This document shows positions 2,002 through 31,731 of a stretch of DNA of 32,000 bases, piece by piece; within the stretch, counting starts at the first letter, position 1, and every line of letters starts with the position of its first letter. The notes below the pieces were generated by a model that worked only from the letters and a program-made list of their open reading frames with translations, made no database searches and had not been told where the DNA came from. Both the position numbers and the translations under genes were made by a program. This DNA comes from Candidatus Thorarchaeota archaeon (GTDB lineage: Archaea; Asgardarchaeota; Thorarchaeia; Thorarchaeales; Thorarchaeaceae): the NCBI GenBank assembly GCA_003345555.1, contig PRDJ01000010.1, positions 74,513-106,512 on the forward strand. The letters run 5' to 3'.

Positions 2002-2124
2002 GCGTCTGTAGTCTAGTCACATTAGCTTGAAGACAACCCAACAGGCGGCTAATGAGAGACTAAGGGGCTATGATTGAGCCCTTCCAAGGCTCGGGCCCGG
2101 GTTCGATTCCCGGCAGACGCACCA
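2002..2124 (+). tRNA. tRNA-Gly(TCC) with 48-nt intron at position 14/15
   Basis: Acceptor GCGTCTG/CAGACGC, anticodon arm GAGCC-CTTCCAA-GGCTC, T arm CCGGG-TTCGATT-CCCGG, encoded ACCA. Removing 2016-2063 gives a 75-nt cloverleaf with D arm GTCTAGGGGCTATGAT. Confidence 0.95.
2016..2063 (+). other. BHB tRNA intron (D-arm, 14/15)
   Basis: Central helix AGTC(2010-13)/GACT(2058-61), 3-nt bulges TA|G and AA|G, inner helix TC.CATTAGC/GCTAATG.GA. The boundary can shift by 1 nt because G occurs at both ends. Confidence 0.85.
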
Positions 2125-2202
2125 CCACCATGATATCATCCACTTCGGACTAGTTCTCAGAGTCTCTCGATGCTCTGGGCTCGGTCACGATGAGGTGCTG
2201 AA

Positions 2203-4236
2203 ATGAAGTCCCTGAAACACAACGGTATTTACGTCATTCACCCCCCAGAAACCCATGGTCTCGCGATTCGTGCTCGTGGCAGAGAGCTGACCTTGAATGC
2301 GCTTCAAGAAGAGATGGCGGTAGCTTGGGTGAAGAAGCTCGGCACGCCTTACGTCGATGACCCTGTTTTCGCGAAGAACTTCCTCGCAGACTTCAGCAAG
2401 GAACTGGGTATCAAGCCTCCACTGAAGCTTGAAGAAGTCGATTTCACTCCCGTCCTGCGATTCGTCGAGAAGGATCGCCAACGAAAAAAGAACATGACGA
2501 AAGAAGAGAAGAAGGCAGACCTAGAGCGTAGGAAAGCAGAGCGAGACCGGATGAAACAGCTCTACGGCTATGCTACAGTCGATGGCGAAGCCATGGAGCT
2601 CGCGAACTACATGACAGAGCCCTCCGGCATATTTATGGGGCGAGGACAGCACCCCCTCAGAGGTCGCTGGAAGCACGGTGCTCTCGAAAAAGACATCATC
2701 CTGAACCTTGACCGGAGCGCACCGAGACCGAAGGGCGATTGGGGCGAGATTACTTGGGCGCCCGATTGTATGTGGATTGCGAGGTGGACTGACAAGCTTA
2801 CAGGCAATGGAAAGTACATCTGGCTTCACGATTCGACCCCGATAAAGCAGGAACGAGAAGAGGCGAAATTCGACAAGGCCCTCAAGATGGAAGCCAAAAG
2901 AGAAGAAATCCGTGCTCACATAATGGATGGTCTCCACTCCAATGATCCGAAGCGCAGAGAAGTCGCTGCTGCATGTTATCTGATTGACAGGCTAAGCCTG
3001 CGAGTCGGGGATGAAAAAGACCCTGACGAAGCCGACACCGTCGGTGCCACTACGCTGAGAGCAGAGCACTTGGCATTCAAGAAAGACTCTGTCCAGTTCG
3101 ACTTCTTGGGCAAAGATAGTGTTCCTTGGCACAAGGAGCTGGAGATGCCTGTGGATGTCTACACAGTTTTCAAAGAGCTTCATGATAGAGCGGTTGAAAG
3201 AGTAGATTCCTTCAAAGCCCGTGGGAGCAGCAAGACTGGCGGAGACCCAAAGAAGGCAGCTCAGGTATTTTCGCGTGTGCGTAGCACTGATGTTAACAAG
3301 TTCCTTGGCGAGATAGACCCGGACTTGACAGCCAAGGTATTCCGAACACTTCGTGCTACCGTTACGATTCGGGATGAGCTTGGCAATAGTGGCATCAGAC
3401 GCAGCGACATGGACTTCATCAAGCGGACAGCATTCAAGAGGGCAAACCTTGAGGTTGCTCGGGTAATGAACCATACGAAGCAGGCCCCGAAGGGCTGGGC
3501 TGCGACAGCGAAACGCTACGAATCAAGGATCAAGGCCGCCGAAGAACGAGTTGCCAAAGCAAAGAAGCAGCTTGACGAGAAGAAACGCCGGCTTGCTGAT
3601 GTGAAAAGAAAGCAGGCACCGGGACTTGCGAGAGCTGAGGAGCTTGTCACGAGACAGAAACAACTGGTCGAGAAATACAAAGACTCTGTCTCTCGGTGGA
3701 GAGAGCGGCGCGACAAGGCAAAGGTTGCTTGGGACAACGCTCGAGACGATAGACAACGTACAAGAGTGAGTAACCGAAAGCGAAAGAGAACCAAGAAGGA
3801 GCGACTTGAGGAAGTGGGAGACCGGGTGGACAATCTGAAGCTCAGGCTGGACAAAGCCGAAGAAGGTCTCGTGAAGGCACGTGAACGCTACGAGAAGAGC
3901 AAGGCTGCCCTAGAGAAGAAGGTGGCTGCGCTTGCTTCATCCAAGCAGAAGTCGGCGGAGCAGATTGGCCGAGTCGAGAAGATCGTGAACACCATCAAGG
4001 AGCGAGTCAAGAGGGCTGATGCTGCAAGACAGAAACTGCAGGATGACTACCATATCGCAAAGGACACACGGACATGGAACTTGGGTACGTCCCTCAAATC
4101 CTACATCCATCCTCGAGTAGTGTATGACTGGTGCAGAAAGGTGGATATGGACTGGCGGTCTGTCTATTCAAAGACGCTCCAAAGGAAGTTCACTTGGGTA
4201 GAGCAGCCTCGCTCTGCATCACCCCTGGGGCAATGA
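2203..4236 (+). CDS. DNA topoisomerase IB (eukaryote-like) with extended coiled-coil linker
   Basis: EPSGIFMGRGQHPLRGRWK, LRVGDEKD, FDFLGKDS, AKVFRT, MNH and GTSLKSYIHP (catalytic Tyr) match TopIB motifs; GAGGTG SD upstream. Confidence 0.96.
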   Translation: MKSLKHNGIYVIHPPETHGLAIRARGRELTLNALQEEMAVAWVKKLGTPYVDDPVFAKNFLADFSKELGIKPPLKLEEVDFTPVLRFVEKDRQRKKNMTKEEKKADLERRKAERDRMKQLYGYATVDGEAMELANYMTEPSGIFMGRGQHPLRGRWKHGALEKDIILNLDRSAPRPKGDWGEITWAPDCMWIARWTDKLTGNGKYIWLHDSTPIKQEREEAKFDKALKMEAKREEIRAHIMDGLHSNDPKRREVAAACYLIDRLSLRVGDEKDPDEADTVGATTLRAEHLAFKKDSVQFDFLGKDSVPWHKELEMPVDVYTVFKELHDRAVERVDSFKARGSSKTGGDPKKAAQVFSRVRSTDVNKFLGEIDPDLTAKVFRTLRATVTIRDELGNSGIRRSDMDFIKRTAFKRANLEVARVMNHTKQAPKGWAATAKRYESRIKAAEERVAKAKKQLDEKKRRLADVKRKQAPGLARAEELVTRQKQLVEKYKDSVSRWRERRDKAKVAWDNARDDRQRTRVSNRKRKRTKKERLEEVGDRVDNLKLRLDKAEEGLVKARERYEKSKAALEKKVAALASSKQKSAEQIGRVEKIVNTIKERVKRADAARQKLQDDYHIAKDTRTWNLGTSLKSYIHPRVVYDWCRKVDMDWRSVYSKTLQRKFTWVEQPRSASPLGQ

Positions 4237-4403
4237 TGGGCTGGCTCATGTCCGGAATCCGGCTGGCTTGTTGGTCTTGCTGTCTCCTGAACGAAGCCCA
4301 TACTGAGAATCTGGAAGCTTCATTACGGTCCGACTCCACGTATAACTGACAGAGTCTGTACTGTCTAGTCTTTATTATGGCTCTGGCTGTGAGAGTCTGT
4401 ATC

Positions 4404-4556
4404 ATGCTGAAAGAAGAATGCCCGTATTGCGGAGGCAGACTCATAGAGAAGCACGAGGAAACTAAGGTCGAAAATGGCAAAACAGTTGTCTTCGTGCACT
4501 TCCGCTGTGTGAAATGCGGAAAATGGACAAGGCGGGAACGGATACATCCACCTTGA
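4404..4556 (+). CDS. small Zn-ribbon protein, 50 aa (not in ORF track)
   Basis: MLKEECPYCGGRLIEKHEETKVENGKTVVFVHFRCVKCGKWTRRERIHPP has two CxxCG knuckles. CTTTATTA lies about 27-34 nt upstream; an in-frame ATG also exists at 4377. Confidence 0.7.
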   Translation: MLKEECPYCGGRLIEKHEETKVENGKTVVFVHFRCVKCGKWTRRERIHPP

Positions 4557-4611
4557 CACTGGAAGAGGTCATCTGGCTCGGCTCTCCTGAGATACGAAAT
4601 GAGAAGCGGTG

Positions 4612-5316
4612 CTACAGCTTCACCTCTAGTGACTTTCCCGTGTTTCCCGCAAAGACTGAGAGTCTCGAACCAACACGAACCATTGCAATGCCGCCAAGGT
4701 AAGGCTCGCGGTCGGTCACGACAAGCGGCCTCCCGAGAAGAAATCTCTTGAGGGACATCAGGGAGAGATCGTGAGTGATGTGGATATGCATCACCGGGTC
4801 CGTTGTCGCTATGAGCCGCGATACAGTATCTGAGCACAGTCTTGACTGAAAACTGCCAAACGACTCTATGCCATTACCGAAGAGACCACTTGCCCACTTG
4901 TTGACGAACTCAGTGACATTCCTTCCATCGGGCTGGAGATTCTCCCATATCTTCTCCTCTGAATACTCTGGCGAGAACAGTGTGTCGAGAGATTCAATCC
5001 CGAGTACTCTCCCGCCTGCATCGTTGAATCCCTTCGCGATGAAGTCGGCAGTCTCTGAACACCTGGGCACGAAGCTCGTGAAGATATGAGCCGGTCTCTT
5101 TACCCTGAGCCGGCGTCCCATCTCAAACGAGGTCTTCCTACCAAGCTCTGTAAGCCCTCCTGAGAGCATCTCTGCATAGTCGGCGAGCGTGGTGCGATGC
5201 GAGTGCCTCACTACAAGAGCAATGGGTGTCCCTGGGTCCATGGAGTTGGTCCACTTGACCAAAGCTCTCGCACTAGATAACCAATCAATCGAGTCCCAGT
5301 CCATCGATTCTGACAA
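4612..5316 (-). CDS. histidine phosphatase (phosphoglycerate mutase-like) family protein
   Basis: LVVRHS (RHG-like) motif, LTELGRKTS, SFVPRCSETA and C-terminal HITHD. Confidence 0.8.
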   Translation of the reverse strand: MSESMDWDSIDWLSSARALVKWTNSMDPGTPIALVVRHSHRTTLADYAEMLSGGLTELGRKTSFEMGRRLRVKRPAHIFTSFVPRCSETADFIAKGFNDAGGRVLGIESLDTLFSPEYSEEKIWENLQPDGRNVTEFVNKWASGLFGNGIESFGSFQSRLCSDTVSRLIATTDPVMHIHITHDLSLMSLKRFLLGRPLVVTDREPYLGGIAMVRVGSRLSVFAGNTGKSLEVKL

Positions 5317-5485
5317 GTTCGTTCACTGTCACCCTAGGAAGTCTCTCTGTTTGACTCACTAGTGTCTTTTCAGCCTTTCAGGGCTATCGAGCCAAACCAA
5401 TTCCTTTCAGACTTGAATAGAAGGATGGCGAAGACCGGCAGGTGACTCCCCGTTTGGTTCAGTCTACCGTGAAGAGAATGAGAAA

Positions 5486-5608
5486 TGGTGCGACCACCGG
5501 GACTCGAACCCGGGCCGGATCCGTGGCAGGGATCCATCATAGCCCCTTAGTCAATCGTTAGCTGCCAATTTGGCTGTCTTCATGCTAGCGATTCTAGACA
5601 ATGGTCGC
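5486..5608 (-). tRNA. tRNA-Gly(GCC) with 48-nt intron at position 14/15
   Basis: Acceptor GCGACCA/TGGTCGC, anticodon arm GATCC-CTGCCAC-GGATC, T arm CCGGG-TTCGAGT-CCCGG, ACCA. Removing 5547-5594 gives a 75-nt cloverleaf. Confidence 0.95.
5547..5594 (-). other. relaxed BHB tRNA intron (D-arm, 14/15)
   Basis: Central helix (T)GTC/GAC(T) with one U.U mismatch, bulges TA|G and AA|G, inner helix AATCG.TAGC/GCTA.CGATT; homologous to intron 2016-2063. Confidence 0.85.
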
Positions 5609-5634
5609 AGCAGTTCAGACCGCGGTCCAGTGCG

Positions 5635-5641
5635 TTAAAAA
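5635..5641 (-). promoter_or_regulatory. TATA box of tRNA-Gly(GCC)
   Basis: TTTTTAA on the minus strand at -27 to -33; the same heptamer precedes tRNA-Val(GAC). Confidence 0.5.
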
Positions 5642-5681
5642 GCTTGTCGAAGCACAACGCTCTCGGAGAAGAGGTTCGGCA

Positions 5682-6803
5682 GTGATAACCGAAGTTGATC
5701 AAGGTCCACAATCGGAAGGCCCACCCTTCGCGAAGGAGCGTGCCGAGTGGATCGAGATTGCAAAGGGCATCGGCGTCACATTTGTGATTCTTGTTCATTC
5801 CATGATTCCGGACATCAACCCGGTTACAACCCACCTCAGTAGTTTCACTATTCCCATCTTCTTCATGCTAACTGGACTGACATACGACAATGAGAAGCAC
5901 AGAAACCATCTTGGAGTGTTGGCCAAATTGCGAGCGCGTCAGCTTCTGATTCCGTACTTCTCATTGTACCTGATTATGATAGTGCTGTTCATTCCGTTGT
6001 CGTCGTATGTCGACACGTACTTGACACCGGACCAAGTCTTGTTCTGGCTCCTCTATGGGAACGGTCCCCCAAACTCCGCCAGTCATCTGTGGTTTCTTCC
6101 CGTGCTATACTTTGGACTGATGGCATTTGCCTTGGTTGACAAGATTACGTACCGTCTGTCGAGGGGCTTCAAGTGGGTCGCGCTGATAATCCTCATGCTA
6201 GCCGCAAATACGATTTGGTCAATCTTCCGCCCAGTCCTCATTCCCTGGCGATTCAGTTCAATCCTCATCGCTGCAGCATTTGTGCTCATCGGGAACGAGC
6301 TGCGCCAATCCAGGGGTCTGAAGGCTTTGGCAAGTCAGTCGGCTGCGAAGAACCTCGCTGGAATCTTGGCACTCACTGTCGCAGTTCTGACACTTTCTCA
6401 GCTCAATGGATTTACTGACATGGCCGTCGATAGCTATGGAGCGTGTGTCTGGCTGTATCTGGGTGCAGGAACAGCGGGCTGCCTTCTTGTGTTTCAGGTT
6501 TCGAGTCTGCTTCACAAATCCTCAGCACCAGGAAGGGGCCTTTTCGCTCTCGGCGGAGTATCCCAAGAGGCATACGAAGTTCATCCTGTGACCTTCTACT
6601 TGGTTCCGATAGTAGCGACGAACTTGGGGTTGTCGTTGACCTCAGACCCCACCGTTGGCAGTCTCTTGTGGCTAGTTCGGTTCTTGCTCGGTGTTATACT
6701 CTCATACGTGCTAGCTAGTCGTCTGATAAGAAAGAACAGCATTCTGTCGTTGATTTTCAGCGGAAGGTCTCGCAGTCAAGACTCTACAGTGCCGCAAAGA
6801 TGA
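5682..6803 (+). CDS. acyltransferase family 3 (OafA/YrhL-like) membrane protein
   Basis: RAEWIEIAKGIGVTFVILVH, FTIPIFFMLTG and HLWFLPVLY motifs with about 10 hydrophobic segments. Start moved to GTG 5682 (GAGGT upstream) because ATG 5601 overlaps tRNA-Gly. Confidence 0.85.
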   Translation: MITEVDQGPQSEGPPFAKERAEWIEIAKGIGVTFVILVHSMIPDINPVTTHLSSFTIPIFFMLTGLTYDNEKHRNHLGVLAKLRARQLLIPYFSLYLIMIVLFIPLSSYVDTYLTPDQVLFWLLYGNGPPNSASHLWFLPVLYFGLMAFALVDKITYRLSRGFKWVALIILMLAANTIWSIFRPVLIPWRFSSILIAAAFVLIGNELRQSRGLKALASQSAAKNLAGILALTVAVLTLSQLNGFTDMAVDSYGACVWLYLGAGTAGCLLVFQVSSLLHKSSAPGRGLFALGGVSQEAYEVHPVTFYLVPIVATNLGLSLTSDPTVGSLLWLVRFLLGVILSYVLASRLIRKNSILSLIFSGRSRSQDSTVPQR

Positions 6804-14220: not shown

Positions 14221-14408
14221 TACTTACGTGACGGAAGTAATACCGGCATCCTAGACAAGCCCAGTGCTTGACAGTCGCTTGAAAATGATTCCCTCAAGCG
14301 GTGTTCCGAAAGTGGGATTCTCCGTTTTCGATGAACCGTGCATAATGGCAGGACTTGACGCAACTGCTTGAATAAGACTGGTTCGGTCCCGTCACTATGC
14401 CTGAATGC

Positions 14409-14513
14409 TGGTGGACCGGGCGGGATTTTTGGGCCCGAAGCTGGAAGTCAGTTCCGGAGAACCCGTGACCTCTTCCATGCCAAGGAAGCGATCTACCACT
14501 GATCTACCGGCCC
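14409..14513 (-). tRNA. tRNA-Ala(GGC) with 30-nt T-loop intron at 56/57
   Basis: GGGCCGG/CCGGTCC acceptor with the G3.U70 Ala determinant, CTTCC-TTGGCAT-GGAAG, ACCA. Removing 14429-14458 restores T loop TTCAAAT (75 nt). Confidence 0.95.
14429..14458 (-). other. relaxed BHB tRNA intron (T-loop, 56/57)
   Basis: Central helix GGGT/GCCC, bulges TC|T and AA|A, inner helix CCGGA/TTCGG; no outer helix. Confidence 0.85.
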
Positions 14514-15005: not shown

Positions 15006-15165
15006 AGAATAGGAGTCGCTGAAGCCTAGGCTAGCGACTTTCGAGCCATTCTCCAGGTTTCACTTAAAAACATGACGATGGAAGCTTGAGACAACAGGGT
15101 CTAACCTACTGATATCTAATTGTTCGGCGTCACAGAATTCAAAAGGCGCATCTCAAGACACATAC

Positions 15166-31362: not shown

Positions 31363-31582
31363 TTGTAGGCCTCTTGTTGTTGTACAAGTGACCGGGAGCG
31401 ATTCCCTTCGCTCCAGCCCTTCAGTACTTGCCTTGACATTCGCATTATAAGAATGTCGGAATGTCGTGCTGAGATGCTTACATACGTTAGGACTGCGTCC
31501 TACTCCAAGACCCGATGAACGCGCTTGAGTTTTTGTTCTGTGACGAGCTCCCTAGATGAGGAATGTGGTGGGCAGGGAGGGA

Positions 31583-31613
31583 ATTCCGATAGACAGGGCG
31601 ACCCTGGACTATT
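31583..31613 (-). other. BHB tRNA intron (T-loop, 59/60), 31 nt
   Basis: Outer helix is the T stem, central TTCG/CGGA, bulges AG|A and AT|T, inner ATAG/CTAT plus hairpin CAGGG-TCG-CCCTG. Confidence 0.88.
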
Positions 31614-31628
31614 CTCGAACCCTCGACA

Positions 31629-31661
31629 GAGGCGGGCAGACTTACGCGAGGGCATCTGCCT
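31629..31661 (-). other. BHB tRNA intron (variable loop, 44/45), 33 nt
   Basis: Central GGCG/CGCC, bulges GA|A and TC|T, inner GGCAGA/TCTGCC, 2-bp outer helix AC/GT. Confidence 0.88.
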
Positions 31662-31731
31662 TCCGCCGTGTGAAGGCGGCATCATAACCGGGCTAGATCA
31701 CCTGCCCTAGACTGGCGAAGGAATCGGCTGG

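Follow-up and report, generated by a model that had tools for sequence, protein, structure and literature searches.

tRNA introns are abundant in Asgard archaea (PMC11291895; 10.64898/2026.10.13.758758), where their median length is 22–23 nucleotides (nt) and where copied introns are rare, amounting to 1.5% at 80% identity and belonging to families other than the one described here (10.64898/2026.10.13.758758). A review (cited with PMC4090602; PMC5829648; PMC11291895) holds that these introns tolerate large sequence variation beyond the bulge–helix–bulge (BHB) splice motif, and an L1-type loop in the splicing endonuclease EndA permits cleavage of non-canonical motifs (PMC5829648). Here we analyze a 32,000-nt stretch of a Candidatus Thorarchaeota genome (contig PRDJ01000010.1, positions 74,513–106,512; hereafter the window), in which two tRNA-Gly genes, Gly(TCC) and Gly(GCC), each carry a homologous 48-nt intron in the D arm. 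Both introns hold the 8-nt motif UGAAGACA within a distal module, UAGC-N-UGAAGACA...GCUA, and comparison of seven distinct introns shows statistically that this module is under sequence-specific purifying selection. With confidence little above even, we favor a role in cis on the pre-tRNA, in which the module would serve as a non-canonical fold or a protein-binding site.

Twin introns in two tRNA-Gly genes

The two genes lie 3.5 kb apart with a type IB topoisomerase gene between them. Each insertion sits after tRNA position 14, and its excision gives a 75-nt tRNA-Gly(tcc) or tRNA-Gly(gcc) that is recognized by ARAGORN; unspliced, the genes are missed or miscalled by tRNA annotation. The 5′ intron boundary is ambiguous by one base (G2016 = G2064), and position 14/15 is fixed by the BHB register. 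A second sequencing run (X6), which may be the source study, spans 5532–5800 and is identical. The runs listed as containing the stretch are DNA runs. Throughout, G000 is the genome of the window, G001, G002 and G003 are genomes of the same genus and L numbers are loci read from relatives. The features, in window coordinates, are as follows:

2002–2124, + strand: tRNA-Gly(TCC) gene with encoded CCA, exons 2002–2015 and 2064–2124; ARAGORN call on the spliced form, intron-less orthologue L193
2010–2013, + strand: exon strand AGUC of the BHB central helix, pairing with intron 2058–2061
2016–2063, + strand: 48-nt BHB-type intron at tRNA position 14/15, resembling the helix–bulge–helix′ (HBh′) form, with 4/4 central pairs and an intron helix, no exon-side helix
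2017–2022, + strand: 5′ strand of the lower intron stem (partner 2052–2057), variable and covarying, four pairs with double-sided changes
2023–2026, + strand: upper intron stem UAGC (partner GCUA, 2048–2051), invariant in 7 distinct introns
2028–2035, + strand: UGAAGACA, invariant (0 changes) and mostly unpaired (predicted unpaired 0.71–0.92)
2036–2047, + strand: variable loop segment with a weak hairpin of 2–4 base pairs (bp)
5486–5608, − strand: tRNA-Gly(GCC) gene with encoded CCA, exons 5608–5595 and 5546–5486; spliced-form call, intron-less orthologues in G001/G002
5547–5594, − strand: 48-nt relaxed BHB intron at 14/15, 3/4 central pairs, U9·U mismatch
5584–5587, − strand: upper intron stem UAGC of the GCC copy (partner GCUA, 5562–5559)
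5575–5582, − strand: UGAAGACA of the GCC copy, invariant

Realignment bears out what the first-pass annotation had counted by hand: the introns align without gaps at 34 of 48 positions, the exons match at 61 of 75 and three pairs covary. These compensatory pairs are intron columns 2:42, 3:41 and 6:38, and a fourth (4:40) emerges once relatives are added. The intron pair has a z score of 6.7, matched by 0 of 300 shuffles, and ranks at the top of 930 intron comparisons. The TCC junction has two 3-nt bulges and a central helix in which all 4 bp are present; a helix of 10 bp lies on the intron side, and the exon side is without one. At the GCC junction, a U·U mismatch inside the central helix leaves three of four pairs, a relaxed form also present in 16 of 20 loci with 30-nt introns at the same site. 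The 8-nt stretch had been placed beside a small variable hairpin; the stretch is indeed invariant, but the hairpin, which reaches 4 bp in the GCC copy, is limited to 2–3 bp in most of the remaining introns, with 80% of its cells paired and none of its pairs changed on both sides. A 10-bp stem bearing a 21-nt loop describes the predicted fold of this region better.

By every criterion tested (geometry, clean removal and enzymes), the Gly introns belong to the BHB class, from which the cleavage reaction itself is inferred. Their removal yields a standard tRNA that matches the intron-less 75-nt orthologues L193, L015 and L017. Named relatives of the neighboring Nep1 protein belong mostly to Thorarchaeota. 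G000 encodes RtcB and two EndA subunits (on C57 and C63), of which the α subunit is closest to Aeropyrum-type chains (3p1z_B/3ajv_B, E 1e-45, with the alignment covering both the loop and the catalytic region) and has the L1 loop (also crenarchaea-specific loop, CSL); homology places the host endonuclease in the (αβ)2 type. We delimited 31 introns by hand in G000, so interrupted tRNAs are the norm in this genome.

Constraint, distribution and history

On two sequences alone, invariance of the 8-mer does not exceed chance (P 0.22), so the initial evidence for it was thin; it becomes significant once homologues are added. An exon-anchored search of 87 genomes of the class, in which the motif was not used, together with metagenome members reached via neighboring proteins, brought in five further distinct homologues, making seven distinct introns in total. 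Across these, none of 36–40 changes falls in the module UAGC-N-UGAAGACA...GCUA, while the lower stem took 15, including four double-sided pair changes, and the other 13 loop columns (12 and 21–32) took 15–18. The chance of any event-free run of eight is P 0.002–0.007. With the motif fixed beforehand, five later-found sequences changed five of the seven other previously invariant loop columns and none of the eight motif columns (P 0.007), in host species that differ at 35–61% of four-fold sites. Control introns compared between G000 and the L085 clade changed in their loops and are identical at 19/36 (Arg-UCU) and 23/33 (Thr-CGU) positions, against 42/48 for Gly. Set against other unpaired positions, the comparison by which the first-pass annotation had proposed to judge selection on UGAAGACA, the motif does not diverge as they do.

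Introns at Gly 14/15 occur in 22 of the 87 genomes; the 48-nt form is present in only two of them (G000 and G003) and in metagenome contigs of the same clade. Further copies of this type are the TCC introns of L085/L194/L196, those in both genes of L198 and the GCC intron of L265, which scores 50 bits with a model whose training set did not include it. The genomes are incomplete, and a copy not found is not thereby absent (the L192 and L201 contigs stop short of the intron), but the intron-less genes were read directly: the GCC genes of G001 and G002, the TCC gene of G001 and the TCC gene of L193, which is precisely intron-less though nested in the clade by Nep1 identity and G003-like flanks. 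The G003 GCC orthologue, which has the same promoter, is without the 48-nt intron and carries a different D-loop intron. Every clade genome read at both Gly loci retains at least one copy. No copies were found at other positions or in other isotypes, with model R1 matching only Gly 14/15 copies in the 87 genomes; among the matches listed for the motif pattern over 400 Asgard genomes, the Gly introns alone lie in tRNA genes. As sampled here, the 48-nt family does not extend beyond a single subclade within one genus. The two promoters that bear on gene identity are:

1954–2001, + strand: conserved promoter region of Gly(TCC), TATA-like TTTAAA at 1967–1972; near-identical in G000, G003 and L085, where the 3′ flank is not
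5635–5660, − strand: conserved promoter region of Gly(GCC), TATA-like TTTTTAA; served for orthologue assignment

Judged by its promoter, the conservation of which shows as much, Gly(TCC) is a maintained gene.

The same tRNA position is used by 30-nt introns at 20 loci (19 distinct), of which 18 are GCC and 2 are TCC genes, spread over seven other genera; in genus g10, the intron sits in the TCC gene and the GCC gene is intron-less. All are without UGAAGACA. In this family (L166–L187), the lower stem is variable and covarying and the apex, CA-RYUUC-UG, is conserved (0.3–0.8 bits, columns 9 and 13–17). We rejected descent of the 48-nt introns from it, as no homology of stem arms or loop is detectable and profile scores are at null level.

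The Gly copies differ at 10–18 positions between loci, at 4–8 among most TCC orthologues and at 5 between the GCC copies of G000 and L198. Because divergence between loci exceeds most divergence within them, the duplication predates these species; because isoacceptor-specific exon features and synteny are retained, whole-gene duplication is excluded. The L265 GCC intron has the TCC-type lower stem of its own lineage (2 differences, versus 6 to the G000 GCC copy), and L198 and its close relative G003 have TCC copies 18 steps apart. These patterns suggest that pieces were exchanged repeatedly, with gene conversion between the identical flanks in the D arm as the simplest route, and by these distances the copying is old and reticulate rather than a recent, single event. 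A recent transposition or conversion between isoacceptors had been proposed as the alternative to selection. Exchange is upheld, but the host divergence at four-fold sites contradicts its being recent and the mosaicism its being a single event, and exchange and selection both hold.

A second isoacceptor pair in G000, Thr(CGT) and Thr(TGT) (C10:59768–59879 and C63:11635–11746), has homologous introns of 36 nt that lie immediately 3′ of the anticodon loop, with a z score of 6.5 versus 6.7 for Gly, stems kept and loop diverged. Both pairs fall below the 80% identity cut-off of the census. The 56/57 introns of Ala(GGC) (window ~14408–14513, −) and Tyr(GTA) (G000 C63:28786–28890) are both 30 nt and similar (z 3.9); they also resemble introns of Pro(CGG) and Arg(GCG), a possible cross-isotype family. 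tRNA-Val(CAC) (window 31566–31707, −) has introns at 44/45 and in the T-loop, and the Val(CAC) and Val(TAC) 44/45 introns have the words GTAAGTC and CGCCTC in common, a pair unranked in the shuffle test.

Orphan 3′ halves of tRNA-Gly genes at L146 (G003 C14:12676–12703 and 15030–15054), L198:13559, L202:987, L034, L040, L055, L061 and L070 mark both Gly loci as integration hot spots. G003 and L198 show a reciprocal arrangement of two Gly(GCC) gene types, one whole and one a remnant. In G003, a second, fragmented topoisomerase IB copy lies downstream of Gly(TCC) on C16 (L147, L146), and the acceptor stem of this tRNA gene has an A·A mismatch with the matching 3′ end on C14, reflecting integration or an assembly break. 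The topoisomerase of the window (2203–4236, +, 677 amino acids) has a long Lys/Arg-rich segment between catalytic core and C-terminal domain (Pfam gap 457–610).

Candidate roles of the distal module

In the account that we favor, a tRNA-Gly gene would have gained one intron at position 14/15 in the common ancestor of a subclade within this Thorarchaeota genus, and the intron would then have been copied to the other Gly isoacceptor, by the simplest route through conversion over the identical D-arm flanks, with pieces swapped again later. The (αβ)2 endonuclease would cleave and RtcB would join the exons; the enzymes and BHB geometry are shown, and the reaction is deduced from them. The apical module may nucleate and hold the hairpin of the intron, thereby allowing a weak splice motif, which has no exon helix and in GCC a U·U, to form, and the lower stem would covary because pairing is its only requirement. 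If the module is needed in cis, each copy must keep it, whereas loss of the whole intron costs nothing; whole-intron absence is tolerated in L193 TCC, the G003 GCC orthologue and G001/G002. The motif is present in both copies in all three lineages read for both (G000, L198 and L194/L265), which a cis requirement explains and a trans function does not require. The 30-nt family has the same constraint architecture, a variable base and a conserved apex, with a different sequence. Several points count against this account. No known structural motif or protein site was found to match the module, and the 30-nt introns function at this position with another apex, so that splicing there does not depend on any one sequence-specific factor. 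A mini-hairpin inside the motif has a predicted probability of only 0.01–0.37; we rejected its pairs U13–A20/G14–C19, which are possible (column 12:21 pairs in 4/7) but of low predicted probability. The seven sequences represent about four deep lineages of one clade and are made non-independent by inter-copy conversion, L265 and L194 were taken as one organism from their shared sample and distances, and retention of the motif in both copies could stem from concerted evolution.

Tentatively, the excised intron might instead circularize and act in trans as a small RNA or ribonucleoprotein, as a protein sponge or by pairing via UGAAGACA and not as a C/D or H/ACA RNA, a possibility that we hold to be unlikely. 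The motif is invariant and mostly unpaired, the introns are 47–48 nt long against the Asgard median of 22–23 nt, archaeal tRNA introns circularize (PMC3326292), free yeast introns regulate mRNAs (10.1101/2025.11.19.689297) and at least one copy persists in every clade genome read at both loci. The occurrence in 2/87 genomes plus same-clade contigs and the motif in both copies speak against it; this patchy distribution, with precise absence in close relatives, argues against an essential trans-acting RNA. No conserved complement was found in 16S (from G003, as G000 is without 16S), 23S or RNase P RNA or in 3018 nt of mature tRNA, the search leaving aside 5S and signal recognition particle RNA; nothing there exceeded chance, with two 7-bp wobble runs in 23S versus about 2 expected. 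Among mRNAs, no 11-mer site is conserved between G003 and G000, and of 17 other G003 sites matching the 11-mer, none is kept in G000 where the orthologous stretch aligned. A more specific version, in which a short BHB intron was recruited within one Asgard subclade as a small circular RNA with UAGC-N-UGAAGACA as a new protein-binding or pairing module, is doubtful. The analogy drawn in the first-pass annotation to the guide in pre-tRNA-Trp fails for want of a D box, a kink-turn partner and a complement among the rRNAs, RNase P RNA and mature tRNAs searched, and a box C/D (or H/ACA) guide of that kind is very improbable. Columns 12–18 match RUGAUGA at 5–6 of 7 positions, columns 12–15 read CUGA in three of the seven introns and an ACA is present, but CUGA merely overlaps the single box-like word, so that C and D cannot both form; columns 31–33, needed for the A·G/G·A pairs, are variable and wrong; no C′/D′ exists; and the would-be antisense element is the covarying stem, with no target. 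The ACA lies inside the apical loop, 7 nt past the helix, and the consensus fold offers no H/ACA pocket. The intron has no match in Rfam.

It is also rather unlikely that the motif has no special function and is a leftover of homology, kept by chance, low local mutability and repeated inter-copy conversion. The two-sequence P of 0.22 and the mosaic history are compatible with this, unpaired positions of other introns also evolve slower than neutral (0.30 versus 0.42–0.49), several other orthologous introns are 90–97% identical between G000 and G003, and the Thr CGT/TGT pair shares an intron at a like z score. What tells against neutrality is the absence of motif changes beside 15–18 in adjacent loop columns, together with the prospective contrast of 5/7 and 0/8 columns (P 0.007); conversion homogenizes within a lineage and leaves drift between lineages unchecked. 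Constraint at the DNA level, through a transcription-factor or recombinase site in tRNA genes that are integration hot spots, is improbable. The orphan Gly 3′ halves, which lie at these loci in G003, L198 and L202 as well as in other genera, would suit such a site, but the motif is non-palindromic and unenriched elsewhere in the genome, its other matches lie in long reading frames, the integration scars begin at the anticodon or T arm and not at the intron, the flanking conservation is that of a base-paired RNA stem, and viral contigs (IMG/VR) are without a match. The same lack of an IMG/VR match led us to reject a viral source of the intron, and a relic of clustered regularly interspaced short palindromic repeats (CRISPR) was rejected because G000 has no array. 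That the motif pairs with its complement UGUCUUCA, which lies in the intron of the G000 tRNA-Arg(UCU) gene, is scarcely credible: the two offer 11 possible pairs in G000, the best duplex among 29 introns, of which 8–9 nt are kept in G003, but the Arg loop reads UUGG in the L085 clade and CCAG in the L198 genome, where the complement is lost and the Gly motif unchanged. Loci L203 and L205 thus refute the pairing unless it is specific to a lineage. The Arg segment folds into a hairpin of its own, whose pairing covariation preserves, and 7 of 465 G000 intron pairs have at least 8 complementary bases (P about 0.1).

Other resemblances were set aside. Pairing of AGAC with the exon D-stem strand gives 4–6 bp only, and likenesses to the tRNA-Phe anticodon loop CUGAAGA, to the G001 Phe exon–intron junction and to lambda boxB are post hoc and not supportable. 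The tRNA-Phe gene of G001 (L149:10900, −) has two introns, those of G000 and L198 none; its exon–intron junction is TGAAGACAAC, a 10-mer identical to one in the G000 TCC intron.

Comparison with known introns

Archaeal tRNA introns have generally been regarded as constrained at the splice motif alone, with C/D-guide introns excepted. The Gly introns have a measurably conserved block that is neither BHB nor C/D, and on present evidence they represent an established intron type distinguished by its conserved module. Together with the conserved apex of the unrelated 30-nt family at this position, the block suggests an unrecognized requirement in D-loop intron processing. Were the Gly introns to act as circular RNAs, they would join the C/D guides as a second type of archaeal tRNA intron with a function. 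The presence of related introns at one site in isoacceptors (Gly, Thr), 65–75% identical, the mosaics and the precisely intron-less relative point to local gene conversion, invisible to a census at 80% identity. These observations bear on how Asgard introns arrive, with an importance limited by the narrow distribution.

Elsewhere in these genomes, the tRNA-Met(CAT) intron of 63–65 nt (G000 C63:10064–10203; L089; L162) has a core, GGGTACACATGGGGTCA, conserved in G000, G003 and G001, and is a better functional-intron candidate than the Gly pair; words like ATGGGGTCA are also present in Leu(TAA) and Trp introns. The near-universal U33 is replaced by C in tRNA-Arg(UCU) of six of six genus members read (L086, L107, L108, L109, L203, L205), in Gly(UCC) of G001 (L038) and in Gln(UUG) of G003 (L087), which could be a lineage trait or reflect C-to-U editing.

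Among described systems, the Loki/eukaryotic selenocysteine insertion sequence (SECIS) core (PMC4989117) shares an AUGA beside a helix with two of the seven copies; we rejected this identity since no 9-bp stem follows the AUGA, no GA lies on the opposite strand and the introns are not downstream of a selenoprotein gene (compare PMC4989117). Yeast free tRNA introns acting on mRNAs (10.1101/2025.11.19.689297) offer a parallel in the idea of a functional excised intron, but the Gly introns have no long conserved mRNA complement. The C/D guide in the archaeal pre-tRNA-Trp intron (PMC4090602; PMC3326292) is likewise a longer intron with conserved non-BHB sequence and one C-box-like word, whereas the Gly introns are without C/D and C′/D′ pairs, kink-turn partner and antisense element, sit at 14/15 rather than 37/38 and are narrowly distributed. 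Intron transposition in Thermoproteales (Fujishima et al. 2010, as summarized in PMC4090602) also placed homologous introns in different tRNA genes of a single genome, the bodies of which are distinct; by comparison with that summary, the Gly copies occupy the same position in genes for the same amino acid, are 63–79% identical, old and mosaic, and fit local gene conversion better than free transposition. Closest are the non-canonical BHB/HBh′ introns of the Thaumarchaeota, Aigarchaeota, Crenarchaeota and Korarchaeota (TACK) and of Asgard archaea (PMC4090602; PMC5829648; PMC11291895; 10.64898/2026.10.13.758758), which resemble the Gly introns in a D-arm site overlooked by standard annotators, a relaxed BHB, an (αβ)2 EndA with L1 loop, patchy gain and loss and the reuse of one position by unrelated introns. 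From these, the Gly introns stand apart by a length about twice the median and by a sequence-invariant distal module.

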